Source of the DNA: an uncultured Burkholderiales bacterium
GTDB lineage: Bacteria > Actinomycetota > Acidimicrobiia > IMCC26256 > JAGPDB01
DNA: 64,000 nucleotides
Direction of reading: 5' to 3'
Assembly: GCA_964561855.1 (NCBI GenBank)
Contig: CAZLQP010000005.1
Location: 1,153-65,152, forward strand
Shown: positions 35,075-55,113 of the stretch, one piece after another
Layout of the letters: each line of letters opens with the position of its first letter
How positions within the stretch are numbered: position 1 is the first letter of the stretch
Notes under the pieces: generated by a model
The model's database searches: none
What the model was told of the DNA's origin: nothing
The model's input: the letters and a program-made list of their open reading frames with translations, nothing else
Program-made: the position numbers and the translations under genes

Positions 35075-35644
35075 ATGACTGACCCTTTCAATGATGATAT
35101 TTTTGCGTCGGATCCTGATTTAGAAGCAATGGCTCGCCAGTTCCGACAGACTTTAAAAGAAGAACAGCTAGAAATTGAAGAGATAGCTGCAGAGGAATTT
35201 GAATCTAGCGTTGATTTGGCATTTGCTTTTTTGGAGTTAATGTGGAGTGGATCTCAAACAAGGGTTAGTGTAGGAGATACTTTTTTCGAAGGAACAATAA
35301 ATCACGTAGGCAAGGACATTGTGCAAATGGCCACAAGGCCCGGAACATTTGTGGATATCCAAATTCCATTTATCGATAATGTTTTTGTTGTCGAACACTA
35401 TAAAGGAAAAGGTAAATCGATTCTCCAGCGAGACCCTCGTACTTTTGTCGCAAGAATGCGAGAGTTAGCCTCGATGCCAATGCAAGAAGTTGAAATTGGC
35501 ACTAACTCAACGTCAGCATCAATATCTGGAATATTAAAGCTTGTTCGTAGCGATCATTTGGTCCTTACAAATCGCGAGAAGAAGCAGTGGTTAGTTCCAT
35601 TAACGAATGTTGGATATTGCCTAACTAGAGCAAAAGTTAGATAA
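35075..35644 (+). CDS. hypothetical protein (189 aa; two similar beta-rich halves)
   Basis: SD AGGA; acidic N-terminal helix, then GTINHVGKDIV and GILKLVRSDHLV halves. Confidence 0.75.
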   Translation: MTDPFNDDIFASDPDLEAMARQFRQTLKEEQLEIEEIAAEEFESSVDLAFAFLELMWSGSQTRVSVGDTFFEGTINHVGKDIVQMATRPGTFVDIQIPFIDNVFVVEHYKGKGKSILQRDPRTFVARMRELASMPMQEVEIGTNSTSASISGILKLVRSDHLVLTNREKKQWLVPLTNVGYCLTRAKVR

Positions 35645-35662
35645 AGGACTCCAAACATGGAA

Positions 35663-35688
35663 AAATCCGCCTGCAGCTAGGCGGATTT
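35663..35688. terminator. probable intrinsic terminator between convergent genes
   Basis: AAATCCGCCT-GCAGCT-AGGCGGATTT perfect 10-bp stem. Confidence 0.75.
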
Positions 35689-35706
35689 CGAAATCCATTG
35701 TTTAAG

Positions 35707-35739
35707 TTATCCACAGTCGCTTGTGGAAAATGTGGATAA
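35707..35739. promoter_or_regulatory. isolated cluster of three DnaA boxes
   Basis: TTATCCACA 35707 (perfect), TGTGGAAAA 35722 (1 mismatch), TGTGGATAA 35731 (perfect). Confidence 0.7.
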
Positions 35740-35750
35740 TCTTGTGTTGA

Positions 35751-35996
35751 TTATGCTTCGTTTGCGTATTCTTGTTCTAATAGCTCAACTTTAGGCATTG
35801 AGTGTTCAATAAAGTTAGAGATATCTTGCTTTAAAAAGCGGTAACCTCGAACTCCAGGAATCTGCATTGCTGGAAGTCGGCCATCTTTCGCCATGAGCTG
35901 AATCATGCGAGGGCTTAACCTCAACCATGCTGCCACCTCTGAAGGCTTCAAGATCGCTGGATAATCATCTGGATCGAAGGGTGTTTGTGCTGCCAT
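35751..35996 (-). CDS. HTH_17 / BldC-like (MerR/Xis-type) DNA-binding protein
   Basis: LKPSEVAAWLRLSPRMIQLMAKDGRLPAMQIPGVRGYRF resembles BldC-type winged HTH; divergent from the Tad operon. Confidence 0.85.
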   Translation of the reverse strand: MAAQTPFDPDDYPAILKPSEVAAWLRLSPRMIQLMAKDGRLPAMQIPGVRGYRFLKQDISNFIEHSMPKVELLEQEYANEA

Positions 35997-42367: not shown

Positions 42368-42598
42368 ATGTTAAAGCTATATGTTGATTGTTTAACTTAC
42401 ATCAATTCAGCTAAGAGTTCTTTTAAACGTAGAGCTGATGAAGAAGGCTTCGTTAGTGCTGAAACTATTGCGATTGCTGTTGCGGGTGTTGTGATTGTTG
42501 GTTTGTTGTTTGGGATTTTTAGGGATCAACTAACAGGATTTGCAGATGGAATAATGGAACGCATCGGCGGTTTTGAAGATACTGAACCAACTCCGTAG
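42368..42598 (+). CDS. flp: Flp major pilin
   Basis: Leader ending RRADEEG, then FVSAET plus hydrophobic helix; predicted mature pilin 49 aa; strong SD AAGGAG. Confidence 0.85.
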   Translation: MLKLYVDCLTYINSAKSSFKRRADEEGFVSAETIAIAVAGVVIVGLLFGIFRDQLTGFADGIMERIGGFEDTEPTP

Positions 42599-45383: not shown

Positions 45384-45734
45384 ATGTTGTCGAACTTATA
45401 TCTAGGGGCCATTGGTCTTGCACAACAGGTAAATAATGGTACAGATCGAATATCGAACTCTCGAAATCAGTTTGACGATACTGCACCTGGTCAAGCTCAG
45501 CTAACTGAACTGATTGGGACTATTAGGTCATGGGCTATCATTGCCTGTGTTCTTGCAATCATTATTGCTGCGATTATTTGGGCATGGGGTTCACAAAGCC
45601 AGAATGCCGCACAAGCAACACAAGGTAAAAAAGGTATGATTATCGCAGTTGCGGCTGCCGCAATCATATTTGCCGCTGAACCACTCATTGACTGGGGTAT
45701 CAGACTCGGCTCTGGAGTTAGAGACGGCGGATAA
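45384..45734 (+). CDS. VirB2/TrbC-like T4SS pilin (DUF6112-like)
   Basis: SD AAGGAGG; PGQAQLTELIGTIRSWAIIACVLAIIIAAIIWAWGSQSQN...GKKGMIIAVAAAAII two-helix pattern of actinobacterial conjugative pilins. Confidence 0.78.
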   Translation: MLSNLYLGAIGLAQQVNNGTDRISNSRNQFDDTAPGQAQLTELIGTIRSWAIIACVLAIIIAAIIWAWGSQSQNAAQATQGKKGMIIAVAAAAIIFAAEPLIDWGIRLGSGVRDGG

Positions 45735-45773
45735 CCAAAAGTACTTGGCTTCAAACCTTACTAAAGTTCTAAA

Positions 45774-45806
45774 GCGCGCCCGTGAAATTTCACGAGCGCG
45801 TTTTTT
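45774..45806 (+). terminator. intrinsic terminator after the VirB2-like pilin
   Basis: GCGCGCCCGTGAAATTTCACGAGCGCG hairpin followed by TTTTTT. Confidence 0.8.
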
Positions 45807-45821
45807 GCAGGGAGGCAAAAA

Positions 45822-46700
45822 ATGACAACACCCGCTGATCAGCTCAAAGACCTATTTGATTCCAAAGATGACAAAGGGAAGCTGGATTTCGAAAAGCATA
45901 TCGTAACGCGATTAGATTTGAACCGACAAGAGATATTAGCTCTACAAATGGATCAGATTGAGAATCCATCGCCAGAGAATGCCCGCAATATTGCTGTGTT
46001 AGAAGTTCGTGCATCACAATATCGAGAAGTGATGCAATATATAGCTCCAGAGATTGCGCGTATTCATGAACAGACTCAAGGGCAAGAACAGACACAGCAA
46101 AATGATCAAGTAGAACAAGGTGTTCAAGCCGATCCGGGTCAAAAGAAATTTCCGAAATGGGTTGCTTATACGGCAATTGCTACAACTGGTCCATTTGCAG
46201 CAGTGTTGTTGATTCCAAAAGTAAAAGATGCAGTTACTGAAAAATTTGGAACTCCAGTGCAAGATGCATCTGATCAAGAAGGGCCAAAATCTCAGCAGAC
46301 CAAAAAATGGTATCAACCTACCGTCAAAAAAGCGATTGTGGGATTGGTTGCGGTAGGAGTATTGTCTCAAGGTGGAAGATGGTATAACGATCAGCAAGCT
46401 GAACAAGAAAATCTGGAGCAGGATCCAAATGGTCAAGTAGTTGGTATACCTACCCCGACGATACCTGAGGGTTATTGCGAGATAGAACCAGGTGAGGGCT
46501 TGCTTGAGTATGAAGCTGAAATGGCTCTTTTGGAGGCCGAAGGCGATCTTGACCAAGCGCTTCTCGATCTAGAAATAGCTCTCGATGGTTATGCATCTGA
46601 AAGATGTACGCTTGATGATATAGCTACTGCTAAGGAAGTCGGAGCGCAGGAATTGACTCGTTTGGCACAACAGCCTCAGGGTCGTGGTTTGGGCGACTAG
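45822..46700 (+). CDS. hypothetical membrane protein, paralogue A
   Basis: SD GGAGG; coiled/Gln-rich N-terminus, two hydrophobic segments, C-terminal two-Cys domain. Confidence 0.75.
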   Translation: MTTPADQLKDLFDSKDDKGKLDFEKHIVTRLDLNRQEILALQMDQIENPSPENARNIAVLEVRASQYREVMQYIAPEIARIHEQTQGQEQTQQNDQVEQGVQADPGQKKFPKWVAYTAIATTGPFAAVLLIPKVKDAVTEKFGTPVQDASDQEGPKSQQTKKWYQPTVKKAIVGLVAVGVLSQGGRWYNDQQAEQENLEQDPNGQVVGIPTPTIPEGYCEIEPGEGLLEYEAEMALLEAEGDLDQALLDLEIALDGYASERCTLDDIATAKEVGAQELTRLAQQPQGRGLGD

Positions 46701-46722
46701 AAAACATTTTAGGAGAGTTCGA

Positions 46723-47172
46723 ATGGGAGCCTATAACAATATTCAAAGAAAATTTTTTAGAGCTATTGGTCGAGAGGTAGTCGAATCTGTGAATCAACCA
46801 GAGGTCCAGTTTAGTGGCGAAACACAAGGCGAACCTTCAAAAAAGCAGCCATCAAAATTGAGAATATTCTTATTGACACTTGCTGCTGGAGTGGGTGGCA
46901 CTTGGGGATACACACAATTATCGAATCCTGATGGTTTAGGTTGTGATCTCGATGTAAACGTCGGGGTTGAACTTGTAAAAGATAGAGTTCAAGAACTTGA
47001 AGATCAAGGTGTTGAAATTACACTGCAAGATCTTGATCAAATTAATCATGAAACTAGAGTTAAAACTATGCAATATGGTTCAGCATACAACTGCCCTCAG
47101 AGCACCAAACGATTCGCGGAACAAGGAAGAATTGAAGAAATGAATCGCCAATATAAAGATCTTGGTCGCTAG
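46723..47172 (+). CDS. hypothetical membrane protein, paralogue B
   Basis: SD AGGAG before ATG 46723; single TM then a two-Cys domain resembling that of the previous gene. Confidence 0.72.
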   Translation: MGAYNNIQRKFFRAIGREVVESVNQPEVQFSGETQGEPSKKQPSKLRIFLLTLAAGVGGTWGYTQLSNPDGLGCDLDVNVGVELVKDRVQELEDQGVEITLQDLDQINHETRVKTMQYGSAYNCPQSTKRFAEQGRIEEMNRQYKDLGR

Positions 47173-47185
47173 TTCTTTTAAACCA

Positions 47186-47920
47186 TTAAGCGTTCGGAAC
47201 TTGTGATAGCAACTTAGGAATTAAGGTTCCATTTACATTTTCAAAGTAGACATTGATTTGTTGAGATATAGTTGTTGATCCACTTGGTGTTGGACATTTT
47301 GCAGAATATCTCACATAGGTGACAATCCAATTTTTACTTTGAGGTAATGGTAAAGAAATTGCTCCTGCGATGTCGCTTTTGAATTCAGTACAGATTCCCT
47401 TTGGTTGTCCTGCAAAATACTCTGGCCATTTATTCGTGCCTACTCCAGTTACCTCTGCTTTCGTTACTTCAATAGCAGTTGTTCTTGCTTTTAAAAATAT
47501 GCTTTCGGGCAGATCGCTATTTGCTGGATTGTTAAGTTCAGAAATTGGGATCCCAGAAGATGTGTCTCCTCCAAGTATGGCTTCGTATCTAGGAGACACA
47601 TAATCGAATATTAAACCTGAATCGAGGGTACCGGTTGTTGGAAGTGCAGCGAGTTCTTCTTTCGCTACTCGATCAAAAGGAAGTCTAAAAGTCTGATCTT
47701 CGGATGAAGAAGTTGTCGGTACAACGTTGTTTTGAGAGCCTTCTGCGTTGTTCGATTCAAGGTCATCTGAATTCCTTTGAGAGGATTCGAATAATTCACT
47801 ACTACTTTCATTTGATGAATCAGAACTTGATGGCCAAAATGCAACAGCAAGTACAACTACTAGAACAGCTATAGACAACACTCCTGCAATTTTCTGATTG
47901 CGTGTTACCTGCGAAGACAT
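47186..47920 (-). CDS. membrane-anchored hypothetical protein downstream of the NlpC/P60 gene
   Basis: N-terminal TM (IAGVLSIAVLVVVLAVAFW), Ser/Asn-rich linker, globular domain with two Cys. Confidence 0.75.
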   Translation of the reverse strand: MSSQVTRNQKIAGVLSIAVLVVVLAVAFWPSSSDSSNESSSELFESSQRNSDDLESNNAEGSQNNVVPTTSSSEDQTFRLPFDRVAKEELAALPTTGTLDSGLIFDYVSPRYEAILGGDTSSGIPISELNNPANSDLPESIFLKARTTAIEVTKAEVTGVGTNKWPEYFAGQPKGICTEFKSDIAGAISLPLPQSKNWIVTYVRYSAKCPTPSGSTTISQQINVYFENVNGTLIPKLLSQVPNA

Positions 47921-47935
47921 TAGATATCCTTTTCC

Positions 47936-49180
47936 CTAAACAACTGCTGCAGTATTGGTTATGTTAGGCGCATAGTAGCCGTTGTAGTTACCACCGTATT
48001 TTGTTCTTACATTGGAAACATCGCCACACTTTGAAGTGTGTATTATGTTCCCGTCAGCCAGCAACATCACAACGTGTCCTGTAGATGGCAGATATAGATC
48101 TCCGGGACGTGCTGCTGATTCTGAAATTTTTGTGGCTCTCCAATTTCCTGCACGCATTAATGCAGTTGTCGGATTTCCGCCTAAATCAGTTCCTGTATCT
48201 TTATATGCAGAAGTTACAAATCCGCTGCAGTCATAATGAGAAGGACCAGTTCTTGTCGTATTGGTTGCACATTTACCATCTGGTCTTCCGTAGGGAATAC
48301 CTAAGTGATGGAAAGCCCAGATGATTGCGCGACCTGCTTCGGGAGTTCTTGCTTGTTGTACTGACTTGACGCAAAGTTCATTTGCGCTGATACTTACGCG
48401 ATATGAACCGCTTGGTATTGCTGAATCTGGAGGACAATCACTTGGATCTCCACCGCCACCGGCATATTGTGCGCATTGTGGGTTATCGGGGTTGCTAACC
48501 AAAACAGTTTGGCCTGATTGTAATGCAGGTAAAATTGATTGAACTAGACCAGCTCCGGTTGCTAGAACTCTTTCATATCGGTCTGGATGGGCTGAACGCT
48601 GCACTTTTTGTGCAGCTTCACCATGTCCCATTGATTGCCAGTTCGGTAGTGCCAAGAGTCCTTCATAGAATTTTGTAGAGGAATAGACCGGATCCATGAT
48701 CTGTTCAGGAGTTCCCCATCCTTGAGATGGTCTTTGCTGAAATAATCCTAGAGAATCCCTATCTCCACCGTTTTTGTTTTCAAATTGATCTTCAACAAGT
48801 GCTGTAATCAGTGCAATGATCAGACCCTTTTCTGGTACAGGAGGTTGCATTTGTAGACCAGTTTGTACAATTATTTGTGCGTGAGCCATCTTATGTTCTG
48901 TGATTGTGCCCGTAGAAGGTGGATTTGAGGGGTACATGTACGTTGAACCCACATTTACAGGTCCATCGGTTGCCAAAGCTGAGATTGCCATTGGTCCGCT
49001 GTCGGTGCATTGACTTGCTCCAGCTCCTGTTATCGCGGTGAGGATGCCTCCGATAAGCATCGCAAAGCCAATCATTACAATAATAAGCAATATAATGACA
49101 ACTGGTACCACTTTTTTAACAAAAAATATGATCGCTTTTTTCTTTGCTACTGCTGCAACTGCAGCAACTGGTGCTGGCAT
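47936..49180 (-). CDS. bifunctional cell-wall hydrolase: lysozyme-like domain plus NlpC/P60 (VirB1-equivalent)
   Basis: TM anchor; IALITALVE...DRDSLGLFQQRPSQGWGTPEQIMDP; catalytic YDCSGFV Cys and GHVVM His; SD AGGAGG. Confidence 0.9.
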   Translation of the reverse strand: MPAPVAAVAAVAKKKAIIFFVKKVVPVVIILLIIVMIGFAMLIGGILTAITGAGASQCTDSGPMAISALATDGPVNVGSTYMYPSNPPSTGTITEHKMAHAQIIVQTGLQMQPPVPEKGLIIALITALVEDQFENKNGGDRDSLGLFQQRPSQGWGTPEQIMDPVYSSTKFYEGLLALPNWQSMGHGEAAQKVQRSAHPDRYERVLATGAGLVQSILPALQSGQTVLVSNPDNPQCAQYAGGGGDPSDCPPDSAIPSGSYRVSISANELCVKSVQQARTPEAGRAIIWAFHHLGIPYGRPDGKCATNTTRTGPSHYDCSGFVTSAYKDTGTDLGGNPTTALMRAGNWRATKISESAARPGDLYLPSTGHVVMLLADGNIIHTSKCGDVSNVRTKYGGNYNGYYAPNITNTAAVV

Positions 49181-50029: not shown

Positions 50030-52322
50030 ACTAAAAACTTCTGTAGCGCTTTTATTTGTACTGGTGTTAGTCTCGACGATTGTTTTATTTGCAACGCCAG
50101 AAAAAGCTGAGGCAACAACCTTGTCATCTGGCAGGTCATTAACATATTTTTCTGCATCTACTTTTGGTGCGATGCCAGCAGAGTATCCAGCGAGCTTGCA
50201 AGCCTTCGGTGGGGTAAGACCTGTAAGTTGGTGGGATTCTATTGCTTCACTTGGAAACAATATTGCATGTTTTAATGCGATTGGAGCAGCGTTGTCAGCA
50301 ACTACTGGAGTTTGTGACGATTCGGTTATGGGATCTGTGGTTGAAAAAATTGAAGAAGCTCTTGATTGCGTGAAAGAGCCTATGGATTGTATCACTAAGT
50401 ATATTTTCGACGTTTTAGGTGGGGCAGTTGGTTGGGCTGTAAATGGAGTAGTGACTCTTGTAACTGGGACCAATGCGGAGTGTATTCGTCCAGGAGATGA
50501 ATCTCCTACATTTAATGATGATGCAAGAGCAAGAGAAACTCTAGATCAGAGGTTGGCAGGTTTTGACTCTTCTGGAGCATGGACAGCTGCACAAGATTTT
50601 AGATGTTCTGAACGAATCTCGCTAGATTATTTCGGACCTGGTGCTGGAGAGACTCAAGATATTTTTGCAGCGATTAATGATGCTAGAGCTACAGAGTTAA
50701 GGCAGATCAGACAGCAAATGAGTGATCTTAGCCAACAGGGAATTACTTCAGGTGAAGAATACGAGGCGTTGGTCGCGAGACAAGCTTTGCTAAATGAAAC
50801 GGCCGGAGATGTTTCAGAAGCTGATGCAATTACTAGAGGGCAAGCTGTCAACAGCGTTTTTTGGACACCTAAATCAACAGTAAGCACAGAAACTTTCAAG
50901 AGAGAGTATGGAAAGTATGTTCTTATTTCGGTCATGATAATGGTTCCAATGATTATCGCAGCTGCATTGCAGTCGCTGATCACAGGAAAAGCTGCATTGA
51001 TGATGCGTGGAGTTTTCATTCATATGCCAGTTGCTATATTTGGAATGATTATTGCGCCTTATCTTGTACGCACGCTAATGGCCATAACAGATACGTTTTC
51101 GTCATTCATCATTGCTGATGTGTCAAACGATGTGCAAGGTTTCTTTACTAATTCGTCTGAATTAATGACAGGGCTGTTTATTTCAATGGGGGTTTATGTG
51201 CTCCTACCCGCTTTCTTGATCGTGCTGGTGTTTTTGTTCGCGTCCTTGATGGTGTGGTTTATTCTCAACGTCCGTGAAGCTTCCATTTCTTTGGTCGCAG
51301 TGTTTTTGCCAATCGCATTAGCTGCGAGCATCTGGCCAGCTCTTGGAAGTTGGGCGATTAAAGCAATCAAGCTATTGGTGGCTTCAATAATTTCGAAGAT
51401 ATTTATTGTCGGTGCAATAAGTTTGGGTATTGGAATTTTTACTGGAGGTGCAGATACTGAAGGGATAGCATTTTCGCTTTCTCACTTAGTTTATGGTTCA
51501 GTTATCTTCTTGATCGCCGCATTTCAGCCAATGTTGGTCTTGAGATTCATGGATGAAATTGGTGACTCGATGACCAACGAAGGTAAGTCTGGTGGTTTTG
51601 CTAAGGGTGTTGCAATTGGTAATGGGCTTCAAGCATTAACTGGTAAGACCCCGTTGGGTGGATTATTAGGTAAAGGTGGTAGTGCTGCTTCAAGTTTAGC
51701 TAGCCCTTCTGGTGCAAGCCCTACCTCAGGTACGGGATCCGCACCTGGTGGTTCATCTGGTGGCCCGGCAAAGTTGTCTCCAGCGGCAAAAGCTGCAGTA
51801 AATGCAGCTACCTCTCCAAAAGGAACAGGCGGAGGAACTTCCCCAGGTGGAGGAAACTCAAGCCCTAAAGGCGGAAATACAAGTCCTGGAGGTACGAATG
51901 GAGGAAGTACCCCACTACCTGCTGGCGCTAATGGTGGGCATGATATTTCAGGACAACGAAATAGCGGATTATTGGTGCCATCAAGCATGAGTGAAAACAG
52001 CGGAGGTGGAGGTGATTCTGGAGGCTATCCCGATGGTTCTAGTTCAAATTTCAACACCGGAGAATACCAGGCGCCTGGACAAGCAAGTGCTCCGGATCTA
52101 GGCCAGATAAGTGCAAATCTCGCAAACTTCTCAGGTGGAGGGGGTGGAGGAGCTCCGACTTCTACGACAGGTGGAGGCAATGTGGGTGCTACTGCACCTA
52201 GAAAAGGATTGATAAATCGCGGGCTAACAAGAGCTGCGAAAGACGGAGGCAAAGCAGGCGTATTAGGAGCGATGGCAAGATTAACTATGGGCGATCCGCG
52301 CAATCAGCAACAGGGCGCATAA
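50013..52322 (+). CDS. VirB6/TrbL-like T4SS channel protein with Cys-rich N-terminal domain and Gly/Ser-rich tail
   Basis: Signal-like N-terminus; central multi-TM region with VAVFLPIALAASIWP...W...LLVASIISK typical of TrbL/VirB6; SD GGAGGG before ATG 50013. Confidence 0.78.
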   Translation: MYLVSRLKTSVALLFVLVLVSTIVLFATPEKAEATTLSSGRSLTYFSASTFGAMPAEYPASLQAFGGVRPVSWWDSIASLGNNIACFNAIGAALSATTGVCDDSVMGSVVEKIEEALDCVKEPMDCITKYIFDVLGGAVGWAVNGVVTLVTGTNAECIRPGDESPTFNDDARARETLDQRLAGFDSSGAWTAAQDFRCSERISLDYFGPGAGETQDIFAAINDARATELRQIRQQMSDLSQQGITSGEEYEALVARQALLNETAGDVSEADAITRGQAVNSVFWTPKSTVSTETFKREYGKYVLISVMIMVPMIIAAALQSLITGKAALMMRGVFIHMPVAIFGMIIAPYLVRTLMAITDTFSSFIIADVSNDVQGFFTNSSELMTGLFISMGVYVLLPAFLIVLVFLFASLMVWFILNVREASISLVAVFLPIALAASIWPALGSWAIKAIKLLVASIISKIFIVGAISLGIGIFTGGADTEGIAFSLSHLVYGSVIFLIAAFQPMLVLRFMDEIGDSMTNEGKSGGFAKGVAIGNGLQALTGKTPLGGLLGKGGSAASSLASPSGASPTSGTGSAPGGSSGGPAKLSPAAKAAVNAATSPKGTGGGTSPGGGNSSPKGGNTSPGGTNGGSTPLPAGANGGHDISGQRNSGLLVPSSMSENSGGGGDSGGYPDGSSSNFNTGEYQAPGQASAPDLGQISANLANFSGGGGGGAPTSTTGGGNVGATAPRKGLINRGLTRAAKDGGKAGVLGAMARLTMGDPRNQQQGA

Positions 52323-52381: not shown

Positions 52382-53830
52382 ATGGCACAAGGTTATAAAC
52401 TTGGTGGCGCTGAGCCAAAGAAACTATTCATGGGATTCAGAACATCTCAAGTAGTTATTTTAGCTATTGGCGTGATGTTAGGTTTTATTGCTGTTGCTGC
52501 AAATCAACTTCTTTTAGTTTTAGTTATATTCGGTTTTGCAGTCGCAATTGCTTTTTTGCCTTTTGGCGGGAGAAATTTAGATGAGTGGATCCCAATTTTT
52601 GCGCGTTGGACAATAACAGGATCCAAAGGAAGACAACATCATAGCGTTGCTCCGCTTTTAGGTCACACAGATAAAAAAAGTCAGATGATTGGGCCTCCAC
52701 CTTTTCTTAAAGGCGTGAAACTTTTAAAGGTTGTCAACTCTGATAATCGCGAGATTGCTGTGATTAAAGATGCACAAGCAGGAACATATTCTGGCGTGCT
52801 ACAAATAAGTGGTGGTTCTTTTGTGCTTTCGTCTTCTGCTGACCAAGAAGTTCAACTAGCAAATTGGGGATCAGTTTTAGCAAGATTTTCTAGAGAAGGT
52901 TCACTAATAAATAGAGTGCAATGGATAGAGCGAGCAATACCTGAAAACTCTCAAGCAATGCACGAGTATTTTGATGGTGCAGCAGCACTTGGCGAAGATA
53001 ATCTTGCAACTCAATCTTATCTAGAGCTTATTGATTCAGCAGCACCGATTACAACATCACACGAAGTCTTTTTGGTTATACAAATTTCTCAACTTAAATG
53101 TGCAAAACAAATAAAGCAAGCCGGCGGTGGAGATGATGGCGCATGTGAGGTTCTAATCAGAGAGCTAACGCATGCTGCAAATCAAGTAGCGAGTGCTGGC
53201 TTTAATGTATTGAAAGTTTTAAATCGAGATGATGCGGTAAGACTCATTCGCACATCTTTTGAACCAGATGTAAACGAGGAACTAGTAAAGAAACAGGCAC
53301 AAGGTTATTCAATGAATGAAATCTGGCCTGTAACTACAGAAACCGAATGGGATCTATTTCACTCTGATGGATCTTTTCATAGAACATTTTGGATTTCTGA
53401 TTTTCCTCGAACAGAAGTGGGTGCAGACTTTCTATCAAACTTGATGCTGCAGAGTCAGATCACCCGGACGGTCAGCGTTGTGATGGAACCGCTCTCACCC
53501 ACTAAAGCCTTGCACGAAGTAGAAGTAGCGCGCACCTCTTTCTTAGCGGATCAAGATATCCGAGACAAAGCAGGTTATGTTACAAACGCTACTCGTCAAC
53601 GAGAGTTTGAAAAACTCCAACAACGAGAACAAGAACTCGCAGATGGACACGGTGCATATCGATTCTCTGCTTACTTAACATGTTCAGCGCCAGATGAAGA
53701 ATCTCTAGAGTATGCCTCACAAGCATTAGAACAAGCAGCACACCAATCGCACCTAGTATTGCGAACATTATATGGTGAACAAGACAATGCATTTGCTACA
53801 CGCTTGCCTTTCGGAAGAGGTCTGGTATGA
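52382..53830 (+). CDS. SCO6880-family protein (PrgI/VirB3-like N-terminus)
   Basis: LFMGFRTSQV plus two TM, LPFGGRNLDEW, WGSVLA, VQWIER, HRTFWISDFPR, QQREQELADGH, GEQDNAFATRLPFGRG. Confidence 0.85.
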   Translation: MAQGYKLGGAEPKKLFMGFRTSQVVILAIGVMLGFIAVAANQLLLVLVIFGFAVAIAFLPFGGRNLDEWIPIFARWTITGSKGRQHHSVAPLLGHTDKKSQMIGPPPFLKGVKLLKVVNSDNREIAVIKDAQAGTYSGVLQISGGSFVLSSSADQEVQLANWGSVLARFSREGSLINRVQWIERAIPENSQAMHEYFDGAAALGEDNLATQSYLELIDSAAPITTSHEVFLVIQISQLKCAKQIKQAGGGDDGACEVLIRELTHAANQVASAGFNVLKVLNRDDAVRLIRTSFEPDVNEELVKKQAQGYSMNEIWPVTTETEWDLFHSDGSFHRTFWISDFPRTEVGADFLSNLMLQSQITRTVSVVMEPLSPTKALHEVEVARTSFLADQDIRDKAGYVTNATRQREFEKLQQREQELADGHGAYRFSAYLTCSAPDEESLEYASQALEQAAHQSHLVLRTLYGEQDNAFATRLPFGRGLV

Positions 53831-55113
53831 GCGCTGTTCCTGATGTAAAGCTCAAGTGGATTGATCCAACTGCTGTATTTGTTCCACCACATCGTGCAAC
53901 CACAGCACACCTTCAAGCTGTGTTTCCTTTAATGTACTCTCCAGGCTTAGGTTCGCGAGGAACATACATTGGCCGCGAGCTAATGGGCGGATCGTTTTGT
54001 TATGACCCTTGGGAACTTTATGCGCAAGGTTTATTGACCAACCCAAACATGTTAATTATCGGACAAGTTGGTCGTGGTAAGTCTTCACTTGTAAAGAGTT
54101 TATTGGTTCGACAACAAGTTTTTGGTCGACGTGCAGCAGTATTGGATCCAAAAGGTGAATATGAAGGACTAGCAAAGGTTTTAGGAGCTCCTGTTGTAAA
54201 AATTGCACCTGGAGGAAATGTTCGAATCAATCCTCTAGATCCGGGACTTAGCATTGGTTTGGTTGAACATGATGAAATCTTTCGACGACAAACCACTTTG
54301 CTTCAAGCCTTAGCTGCATCTTCTTTGAATCGAGAATTATCACCAGAAGAACGAACTGCCTGTGATTTAGCGTTAGCGGACTTTCACGAATTCAATCACG
54401 GCAAAGTTCCAACAATTCCAGACATAGTCGAGTGGTTATTACATCCTCGAGAAGAAGCGGCATTAACTGTAGGTGCTACTGCAGATCAAATCGCTCATGG
54501 AGTGAGAGAGGTTGCTCTTGAACTTCGTCGAATGTGTCACGGTGATTTAAAAGGTATGTTCGATGGTCATACAAATATCACAGTTGATTGGGATGGACCA
54601 TTGGTTGTAATTGACCTATCTGCAGTGTTCTCTTCTTCTGCATTAGGGTTGTTGATGACATGTGCAACTGCTTGGATGCAAAGTGCAATCGTTAGACCTA
54701 ATGCTGGTCGACGATTCATAGTTGTAGATGAGGCTTGGGCTGTTTTAAGTAACGTCGGTGTAGCTCGATGGTTACAGCAGTCTTACAAACTTTCTCGTGC
54801 ATATGGTATCTCTAACGTTGCAGTTATGCACCGTGTTAGCGACCTTCAAGCTTCAGGTGCAGTAGGTTCCGAAGCTTATGCGCTTGCAAGAGGTTTGTTA
54901 TCTGATACAGAAACTAGAGTGATATATGGACAACCGCACTCTGAAGTTGAAATGGCACAAGAACTTTTAGGTTTGTCAGAGTCAGAAGCAGGATTACTTC
55001 CTCAACTAGGTAGAGGACAAGCGCTATGGAAGGTCGGCTTGAGATCATTTTTGATCGAACATATATTAGGAGAGACCGAACTAGCAATAGTTGACACAGA
55101 CGCAAGAATGTAA
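53827..55113 (+). CDS. virB4: VirB4-like T4SS ATPase
   Basis: HRATTAHL, GQVGRGKSS Walker A, VLDPKGEY, RRFIVVDEAW Walker B, KLSRAYG; overlaps the SCO6880 stop. Confidence 0.9.
   Translation: MSAVPDVKLKWIDPTAVFVPPHRATTAHLQAVFPLMYSPGLGSRGTYIGRELMGGSFCYDPWELYAQGLLTNPNMLIIGQVGRGKSSLVKSLLVRQQVFGRRAAVLDPKGEYEGLAKVLGAPVVKIAPGGNVRINPLDPGLSIGLVEHDEIFRRQTTLLQALAASSLNRELSPEERTACDLALADFHEFNHGKVPTIPDIVEWLLHPREEAALTVGATADQIAHGVREVALELRRMCHGDLKGMFDGHTNITVDWDGPLVVIDLSAVFSSSALGLLMTCATAWMQSAIVRPNAGRRFIVVDEAWAVLSNVGVARWLQQSYKLSRAYGISNVAVMHRVSDLQASGAVGSEAYALARGLLSDTETRVIYGQPHSEVEMAQELLGLSESEAGLLPQLGRGQALWKVGLRSFLIEHILGETELAIVDTDARM

Follow-up and report, generated by a model that had tools for sequence, protein, structure and literature searches.

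Two tandem genes, ORF1 and ORF2 (ORF, open reading frame), fill a hypervariable accessory slot in a combined Tad pilus and type IV secretion system (T4SS) cluster of an uncultured Acidimicrobiia-type member of the Actinomycetota. The window, which is the whole 64,000-nucleotide stretch of DNA analysed here, comes from a subsurface DNA metagenome. ORF1 (window 45822-46700, + strand; ORF list) encodes the 'a-type' slot protein of 292 amino acids (aa), and ORF2 (46723-47172, + strand; ORF list and frame check) encodes the 'b-type' slot protein of 149 aa. Evolution of the slot is far more rapid than that of its flanks. The slot proteins probably form a family with a basic N-terminal side, a single membrane span with the N-terminus inside and the C-terminus outside (N-in/C-out), a small, acidic, helical ectodomain with two conserved cysteines, and a hydrophobic-x-Gly-Arg tail. 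The best overall explanation, which we hold with slightly less than even confidence, is a hypervariable slot that carries polymorphic surface specificity determinants.

Slot genes in related loci

The pilin encoded upstream of ORF1 has 32 homologues with 50-84% identity, and their contigs were compared. Near-duplicate contigs were removed, leaving about 13 lineages with a common gene order. Scans of metagenome and genome collections with a pilin profile returned four loci each. The pilin relatives are labelled Acidimicrobiia. In the roughly 13 lineages, the Tad genes are followed by a gene for a 324-aa protein, the DUF6112 pilin gene, the slot, a gene of 231-269 aa and a hydrolase gene (both on the minus strand), and then by the genes for DUF8175, a VirB6-like protein, an SCO6880 protein and a VirB4 ATPase. 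In every complete locus the slot, which extends from the pilin terminator to the convergent gene, holds one or two genes on the plus strand, which encode 135-650 aa, and ORF1 and ORF2 both sit in this position.

The slot genes differ widely in number and length. Next to the 292 + 149 aa of the window, two-gene slots encode 379 + 574 aa in locus L001, 396 + 650 aa in L002, 280 + 198 aa in L003, 396 + 135 aa in L005, 429 + 186 aa in L008, 364 + 235 aa in L012 and 322 + 200 aa in L028. The single-gene slots of L004, L009, L016, L020 and L023 encode 216, 298, 330, 302 and 451 aa, respectively. The flanking proteins share 87-90% (T2SSE), 63-84% (pilin) and 30-67% (other neighbours) identity with those of the window. 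Identity of the slot proteins to ORF1 is at most 26% or undetectable.

Within sister loci, the a and b copies are paralogous (L001_a and L001_b, E=2.5e-51 over 260 residues; L008_a and L008_b, E=8e-8). Wherever a two-gene lineage has an 'a' copy of the cysteine family (L001/L002, L003, L005, L008 and L028), its second gene is always a family member. Among these second genes is L005_b, from the locus closest to the window in its flanks. A preliminary description of this DNA had proposed a duplicated, diversifying family bound to such loci. The relatives bear this out, with one or two copies per locus and paralogous a and b genes in sister loci.

Divergence of the slot genes

Loci L001 and L002, whose DNA is 99% identical over 10 kb, were used as a pair for microevolutionary comparison. 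The two slot genes contain 29 of the 33 nonsynonymous differences and 84 of the 113 indel codons between these loci, and the remaining 29 indel codons are found in the adjacent 240-aa gene. Each of the ten genes 5' of the slot shows 0-1 nonsynonymous differences, with a ratio of nonsynonymous to synonymous polymorphism (pN/pS) of about 0. Slot gene a has three nonsynonymous differences and a 9-codon indel, and slot gene b differs at 26 nonsynonymous positions and by a repeat expansion of 75 codons; the pN/pS values of the slot genes are 0.19 and 0.51, the latter for gene b. From the repeat region of slot gene b onward, DNA identity falls from 99% to 96%, which suggests that this shift is a recombination junction. 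The 240-aa gene, located 3' of the slot and of this breakpoint, has three nonsynonymous differences, a 29-codon length difference and a pN/pS of 0.04. The expanded tandem repeats are rich in Pro and Glu and lie in the N-terminal portion of slot gene b (L001 10095-10355 and L002 10347-10616).

Between lineages, protein modules have been gained and lost. The nearest cultured T4SS of this type is encoded on a plasmid of Iamia sp. SCSIO 61187 (NZ_CP050950.1). The SCO6880-type T4SS of this plasmid shares with the window cluster the DUF6112, DUF8175-like, VirB6-like and SCO6880 proteins, the VirB4-like ATPase, a VirD4-like protein and a cell-wall hydrolase, but the plasmid differs in carrying a MobF relaxase, no Tad genes and no slot. 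Its DUF6112 gene is directly followed by the DUF8175 homologue (E=7e-10), and no family member was found in a search of the plasmid. Since the slot is absent from the Iamia plasmid and both modules and sequence identity vary, we regard the slot proteins as accessory and lineage-specific, and as the part of the cluster that evolves fastest.

Family architecture and membership

Alignment of the slot proteins revealed a common plan of a membrane span, a short linker, a cysteine, a helix, G-(D/N)-P, a second helix, a second cysteine and a further helix. Most members also carry a stalk rich in Thr and Pro and, as a second module, C-x-DG-x-IVY ... W-x-G-x-x-C-x-V-x-PG, and the terminal strand of the family ends in G-R/N/E/K. 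Four cysteines and a near-terminal Gly are invariant in the eight two-module members. The stalk and the second module are missing from ORF1 and ORF2, which have two cysteines each, and L005_b, L009_a and L020_a also lack the second module. Its absence from several members indicates that this module is optional within the family, and the ORF1/ORF2 pair is the minimal form of the family.

The predicted ectodomain module of ORF1 (residues 219-283; 46476-46670, + strand; HMM, hidden Markov model, and hhalign) is acidic and helical, with Cys219...G241-D...Cys262 and a following helix. That of ORF2 (residues 74-136; 46942-47130, + strand; HMM alignment of residues 69-134) is likewise predicted to be helical, with Cys74...G96...Cys124 and a following helix. 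The a-type proteins additionally have an N-terminal helical domain and a hydrophobic segment with an invariant Pro, followed by PKV(K/R)xA. In ORF1, the N-terminal domain corresponds to a helical hairpin at residues 1-98 (45822-46115, + strand; AlphaFold2 and a-type N-domain alignment), which is predicted to be cytoplasmic. The hydrophobic segment is also present in ORF1, at residues 113-131 (46158-46214, + strand), with the conserved Pro at its centre, the PKV(K/R)xA motif after it and a Kyte-Doolittle mean of 1.61. K109, P124 and A137 (ORF1 numbering) are invariant in the a-type alignment.

Family membership was scored with an HMM built from non-window modules only, which was run over 578 stop-to-stop ORFs of the window. 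Composition-preserving shuffles of the ectodomain were scored with hmmsearch. ORF1 ranked first of the 578 (E=2e-5), and its score was reached by 0 of 2000 and 4 of 5000 shuffles. It also aligned in register with the family in hhalign (P=0.001-0.004), gave Smith-Waterman z values of 2-5 against seven relatives, matched L005_a in BLASTP (7e-4), and has the juxtamembrane motif of the a-types. By these comparisons, ORF1 is a weak but significant family member. ORF2 ranked 3-5 of 578 (E=0.5-2.1), and its score was reached by 2 of 2000 and 27 of 5000 shuffles, with both cysteines aligned to family cysteines. Hhalign with a profile that contains the transmembrane (TM) region gave P=0.018, with both cysteines in register. 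ORF2 has exactly two cysteines, 50 residues apart. It occupies the same position as L005_b and falls in the same size class; both have a single N-in/C-out span, two cysteines, predicted helices and an LGR tail. ORF2 is probably an extremely diverged family member, and the architecture and family assignment are likely to be correct. In agreement with the family proposed in the preliminary description, ORF1 matches the family profile, and ORF2 matches it weakly, with both cysteines in register.

A C-terminal G[RNKEQ]x0-3 tail occurs in 11 of the 17 slot proteins, compared with 12.9% of background ORFs. The tail type is hydrophobic-x-G-[RNKEQ]; the end of ORF2 (...DLGR; 47158-47169) fits this type and that of ORF1 (...QGRGLGD; 46674-46697) is looser. 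The possibility that the tail sequence serves as a ribosome-binding site for a following gene was ruled out, because b-type and single-gene members have no same-strand downstream gene. The hydrophobic-x-G-R/N/E/K tail persists even where all other family features are lost, as in L012_a (...TTIGR). The L012 slot proteins have no cysteine module.

Resemblance between ORF1 and ORF2

The two window proteins had been paired on an ungapped 23-residue match, CEIEPGEGLLEYEAEMALLEAEG (ORF1 residues 219-241) and CDLDVNVGVELVKDRVQELEDQG (ORF2 residues 74-96). Its residues are as described, with 5 identities in 23 positions, and the second cysteine reported for both proteins is present (residue 262 in ORF1, residue 124 in ORF2). 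The similar protein ends were likewise found as stated, with tails ...QGRGLGD and ...KDLGR. As a direct match, however, the stretch is weak. BLASTP gave E=4.2 for the 23 residues, and Smith-Waterman comparison of the two ectodomains with 1000 shuffles gave z=1.3-1.5 (p about 0.1). Neither test gave significant direct homology of ORF1 and ORF2. Anchored on the cysteine, the ungapped 23-mer has a score of 22, which was reached by 0.3% of anchored shuffles (p=0.003), and it is the top-scoring of 5460 possible 23-mer pairings. The resemblance appears real, though weak taken alone; it is significant only when anchored on the cysteine and is not convincing on its own. It becomes convincing in the light of the related loci.

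Alternatively, only ORF1 could belong to the family, and ORF2 could be an unrelated orphan that matches by chance, either a small membrane protein of de novo or captured origin or a remnant of gene decay. The BLASTP and Smith-Waterman values against ORF1 would agree with such an origin, as would the lack of a significant pairwise score with any relative, the HMM E value of 0.5-2.1 among window ORFs, and an hhalign P of 0.18 with the ectodomain-only profile A3, which contains neither the TM region nor L005_b. A chance match accounts poorly for profile scores that beat composition-matched shuffles with both cysteines in register, for the p=0.003 of the anchored 23-mer, and for the finding that, in all the remaining two-gene lineages whose 'a' copy is of the cysteine family, the second gene belongs to the family. 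The N-in/C-out anchor, the two cysteines, the acidic helical ectodomain and the LGR tail of ORF2 are all family-like as well. We consider an orphan origin of ORF2 unlikely.

Membrane topology and predicted structures

Lysine and arginine residues (K/R) were counted in the 15 residues before and the 15 residues after the last span of 17 slot proteins. In all 17, there are 2-6 K/R before the span and 0-2 after it. The ectodomain isoelectric point is 4.0-4.8 in 15 of the 17 proteins (ORF1, 4.05; ORF2, 4.61), and 13 of them have two or four ectodomain cysteines. The last membrane segment of ORF1, residues 168-186 (46323-46379, + strand), is weak and has a short core, and the membrane segment of ORF2, residues 46-63 (46858-46911, + strand), is weakly hydrophobic and Gly-rich, with a Kyte-Doolittle mean <1.5 and an AlphaFold2 helix at 45-65. 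Both segments have three K/R on the N-side and none on the C-side and are predicted to be N-in/C-out. The TM segment that the preliminary description placed before the 23-residue match is present in both proteins and aligns with clear TM helices of the relatives, but it is only weakly hydrophobic. Ahead of the hydrophobic segment, the window proteins have N-terminal stretches of 45 and 112 residues.

The charge and cysteine patterns point to an outward-facing, disulfide-stabilised domain, in which the paired cysteines probably form a disulfide. Disulfide bonds are known to form in exported actinobacterial proteins. A lipoprotein reading was rejected; some b-types have a Cys at the end of the span, but their motifs depart from the canonical lipobox, and ORF2 has no such motif.

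AlphaFold2 was run on single sequences with no alignment. The mean predicted local distance difference test score (pLDDT) was 48 for ORF2 and 50 for ORF1. The ORF1 hairpin (helices 17-47 and 51-98; pLDDT about 90 over residues 1-90) is the only reliable part, and it should be cytoplasmic because ORF1 has no signal peptide. A Foldseek search with the ORF1 model returned generic helical hairpins only. Helices were predicted in ORF2 at residues 78-94, 101-118 and 126-147. Given the weak spans and the unreliable ectodomain models, the topology is inferred.

This topology bears on the suggestion that the two proteins are candidate effectors. As VirD4 substrates, they would be translocated effectors or a toxin/immunity pair that is recognised via Arg-containing C-terminal signals. 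Both tails contain Arg, G-R type tails are enriched in the family, the locus encodes a VirD4 homologue, and the genes are orphan and variable, as effector genes often are. However, the positive-inside rule puts the C-terminal domain and the tail outside the cell in this prediction, where the Arg-containing tails would be beyond the reach of VirD4. In addition, conserved cysteine pairs, beta modules and acidic stalks rich in Thr and Pro are usual in proteins exported to the surface, and searches of Pfam, NCBIfam, PADLOC and PHROGs with ORF1 and ORF2 detected no domain of a toxin, enzyme or immunity protein. The effector proposal conflicts with the K/R placement on the N-side of the last TM segment in 17/17 slot proteins, with their acidic ectodomains and with their mostly even cysteine numbers, and we consider it very improbable.

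Database searches and structural alternatives

In a word-indexed search of 5.8e9 clustered proteins, ORF1 and ORF2 each matched only itself. An exhaustive phmmer search with ORF1 against 1.84e9 representatives retrieved, apart from ORF1, a single TPR-repeat protein (P0035, E=9e-4), which was dismissed as a relative because the match stems from 'GDxxQALxDL' repeats. Neither ORF1 nor ORF2 has a family match in Pfam, NCBIfam, PHROGs or PADLOC. Among the 17 slot proteins, no Pfam match was found, VirB5/TrbJ and VirB10/TrbI included. PDB searches with the ectodomain profile and the a-type N-domain profile gave nothing below E=0.15, and neither the pilin nor ORF1 was matched in the plasmid collection. 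The family-library and PDB profile searches thus matched the pair to no known conserved component of integrative and conjugative elements (ICEs) or T4SSs.

A further explanation is that the slot proteins are fast-evolving structural accessory subunits of the T4SS rather than specificity factors, either as a VirB5-like minor pilin or tip protein or as a VirB10-like relay. A structural role is a serious rival; in its VirB10-like version an a-type protein with a cytoplasmic domain, one span, a stalk and an outer domain would link the ATPases to the outside. Gram-positive T4SSs are described as lacking VirB10 and, in general, pili, so that unidentified components must connect the inside with the outside, and one of these probably substitutes for VirB10 (PMC12857230). 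The location of the slot directly 3' of the pilin gene, the extension of a-type proteins from cytoplasmic hairpin to ectodomain, and the Thr/Pro-rich stalk and beta module of the relatives suit such a subunit. A structural subunit is harder to reconcile with a gene number of one or two, with modules that are lost or gained, with the L012 slot proteins, which lack the cysteine module, and with the nearest cultured T4SS, which works with no gene between those for DUF6112 and DUF8175. The missing VirB5/TrbJ and VirB10/TrbI matches among the 17 members argue in the same direction, as do the long N-terminal tails, instead of cleavable signal peptides, of the a-types and ORF2. Overall, we rate a structural role as somewhat unlikely.

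VirB5/TrbJ minor pilins and tip adhesins are encoded near the VirB2 gene and are, like the slot proteins, small, mainly helical and extracytoplasmic; they are also variable between systems and implicated in target recognition. The window proteins differ from them in their long N-terminal tails with a membrane anchor and no cleavable signal peptide, in the absence of a Pfam match, in the varying copy number of the slot, and in the absence of the slot from the nearest cultured actinobacterial T4SS. Sortase-anchored adhesins of the PrgB type are also unlike the slot proteins, whose anchor lies N-terminal to the ectodomain, and neither ORF1 nor ORF2 carries an LPX[TSA]G motif (LPXTG in such adhesins).

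Comparison with exclusion and identity systems

Conjugative elements encode exclusion proteins, such as TraT/TraS of F, TrbK of IncP, Eex of SXT/R391 and YddJ of ICEBs1. These proteins and the slot proteins are alike in being small, membrane-associated and polymorphic, and in being encoded within the transfer-gene cluster but outside the core channel. A further feature listed as common is that sequence variants define specificity groups. The class has been described as surface or entry exclusion proteins (PMC9040860, section 19). The membrane, polymorphism and transfer-region features of the pair are class-wide and thus do not prove homology with exclusion proteins. Unlike them, the slot is a two-gene paralogous cassette whose products have a cysteine-paired helical ectodomain and an optional stalk/beta module, and exclusion proteins share no sequence or profile similarity with the slot proteins.

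In Mycobacterium smegmatis, the mid locus of esx1 contains Msmeg0069 and Msmeg0070, tandem polymorphic orphan genes; the locus determines self-identity and compatibility in conjugation (PMC9040860). Msmeg0070, which sets this identity, has one predicted TM segment and is proline-rich (PMC9040860), as are the stalks of the slot-family relatives. Like the slot, the mid locus consists of tandem orphan genes, extremely polymorphic between strains, within a secretion locus, of which it is the least conserved part. The mid locus belongs to an ESX-1 system, in contrast to the T4SS and Tad genes found here, and its function rests on genetics, in contrast to the inferred function of the slot. The Msmeg0069/0070 pair is the closest analogue in kind, and no homology is claimed.

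Among the options of the preliminary description (substrates, immunity or specificity proteins, or minor pilins), specificity proteins are the most plausible. The slot proteins would sit at the cell surface beside the secretion machine and act there as polymorphic determinants of cell-to-cell contact specificity, either by telling self apart from partner, as in exclusion or identity, or by recognising the recipient. The 'a' copy could couple contact to the cytoplasmic side of the machine. Membrane-anchored and predicted surface-exposed proteins that are polymorphic, variable in copy number and non-core, yet fixed in position, fit the determinants of exclusion, adhesion or identity in conjugation. 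We tentatively assign the slot proteins such a specificity function (exclusion, identity or recipient recognition).

Several observations weigh against this assignment. Because pN/pS is below 1, relaxed constraint is as good an explanation of the variability as diversifying selection. The ectodomains of ORF1 and ORF2 are short (86-106 aa) and stalk-less, which suits a membrane-proximal role (exclusion or identity) better than adhesion over long distances. Both proteins have only weakly hydrophobic membrane segments, and the ectodomain models are unreliable (pLDDT 30-50), so that disulfide and fold stay putative. ORF2 gave no signal in pairwise tests (BLASTP and Smith-Waterman) against any relative or ORF1 and reached only P=0.18 with profile A3. 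A co-varying partner of the slot proteins was not identified.

By analogy with the mycobacterial locus, the slot might be a cassette for mating identity (kin recognition) in a chromosomal Tad and T4SS contact apparatus of Acidimicrobiia that has no relaxase. The a/b proteins, facing outward in allelic pairs, would then determine which cells may engage. This extension of the specificity reading is doubtful. If true, it would provide a parallel to the mycobacterial mid locus built on a type IV system.

The cell-surface side of conjugation in single-membrane bacteria is poorly understood, and the pair is the one hypervariable element of the cluster beside a VirB2-like pilin, a Tad pilus and a T4SS. 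If a role in partner specificity or exclusion holds, the slot would give a handle for predicting DNA exchange partners in an abundant uncultured actinobacterial lineage, and T4SS annotation would gain a protein family that is new and unannotated. If the pair is only a fast-drifting accessory, the result would be a useful annotation and little more.

Gene pair and flanking genes

ORF1 and ORF2 are real genes and are predicted to be co-transcribed. The most likely start of ORF2 is ATG 46723; the listed GTG 46684 is less likely, since it would make ORF2 overlap ORF1. Direct reading of the sequence identified a Shine-Dalgarno motif GGGAGG 6 nt 5' of the ORF1 ATG (45810-45815, + strand) and GGAG 7 nt 5' of the ORF2 ATG (46712-46715, + strand). 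The upstream flank of the slot is the gene for the DUF6112 / TrbC-VirB2-like pilin of 116 aa (45384-45734, + strand; Pfam DUF6112 2.9e-12, TrbC 5e-5). Directly 3' of this gene and 5' of ORF1, a G+C-rich hairpin of 14 bp with one mismatch, followed by U6, resembles an intrinsic terminator (45771-45806, + strand; fold). An equivalent G+C-rich hairpin and U tract follow the pilin gene in 11 of 11 lineages examined. The separate Shine-Dalgarno motifs of the two genes and their position behind the pilin terminator, as first described, can all be read in the sequence. An antisense ORF of 180 aa within ORF1 (46014-46556, - strand) looks spurious and is not conserved in other loci. Similarly, a Gly-rich gene of 134 aa called after the pilin gene in L003 (8389-8793, - strand) looks spurious and is not kept elsewhere. 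In one lineage, a second DUF6112 pilin gene lies 5' of the gene for a 328-aa protein (L012 6297-6653, L013 901-1257 and L014 1870-2226).

The conserved downstream flank of the slot is the convergent gene for a 244-aa membrane protein (47186-47920, - strand; 34-52% identity in relatives). The next gene encodes an NlpC/P60 hydrolase (47936-49180; Pfam match). The catalytic domains of this hydrolase are swapped between loci (window 47936-49180; L001 12219-14138; L004 9942-11261; L009 3444-4790), with NlpC/P60, GDSL lipase plus NlpC/P60, VanY, and transglycosylase plus VanY variants. Besides the slot, the cluster therefore has another modular and variable element in this neighbouring cell-wall hydrolase.

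Cluster context

The window covers a chromosomal origin region with parB, parA, gidB, jag, yidC, dnaA, dnaN, recF, dciA, gyrB, gyrA and tRNA-Ile. The Tad and T4SS cluster (33715-58400) lies 2.5 kb downstream of tRNA-Ile and adjoins the dnaA-gyrA origin region, and housekeeping genes (NucS, malic enzyme and SURF1) lie beyond it. In order, the cluster contains an excisionase-like helix-turn-helix (HTH) gene and the Tad pilus operon with genes for RcpC-like, ParA/CpaE-like, T2SSE, two T2SSF, Flp-like pilin and three TadE-like proteins. After this operon are the genes for a 325-aa membrane protein, the pilin, ORF1, ORF2, the convergent 244-aa protein and the NlpC/P60 hydrolase, and then those for DUF8175, the VirB6-like protein, the SCO6880-family protein, the VirB4-like ATPase and VirD4. 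No relaxase or integrase was seen in the window, and no attachment-site (att) repeat of the tRNA-Ile 3' end was found within it. Instead of a classical ICE, the cluster may represent a chromosomal system that lacks a relaxase.

Upstream of the Tad operon, a gene for a 189-191-aa protein accompanies the 81-aa excisionase-like HTH_17 gene (35075-35996, - strand). The same arrangement is found in two distant relatives (L026 1-499 and L027 1-530), indicating that both genes are part of a conserved unit. Between the T2SSF and TadE-like genes, an ORF of 76 aa with the hydrophobic core GFVSAETIAIAVAGVVIVGLLFGIF (42368-42598) is a candidate major pilin of the Tad system, of the Flp type. Two genes that overlap by 4 bases share the VirB4 function (52382-55113). 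One encodes the SCO6880-family protein (482 aa), with weak VirB4 N-terminal and EccE-like similarity, and the other a separate P-loop ATPase of 428 aa that matches the VirB4 C-terminal half. The VirB6-like protein (775 aa) has a Gly/Ser/Pro-rich low-complexity tail of ~250 residues (about 51550-52322), and its relatives are 556-769 aa long. Loci L020 and L021 (CAYMMG010000011.1 and CAZFAO010000010.1) come from public metagenome-assembled genomes titled 'uncultured Burkholderiales' that carry this actinobacterial-type cluster; these titles are probably a binning or labelling error.

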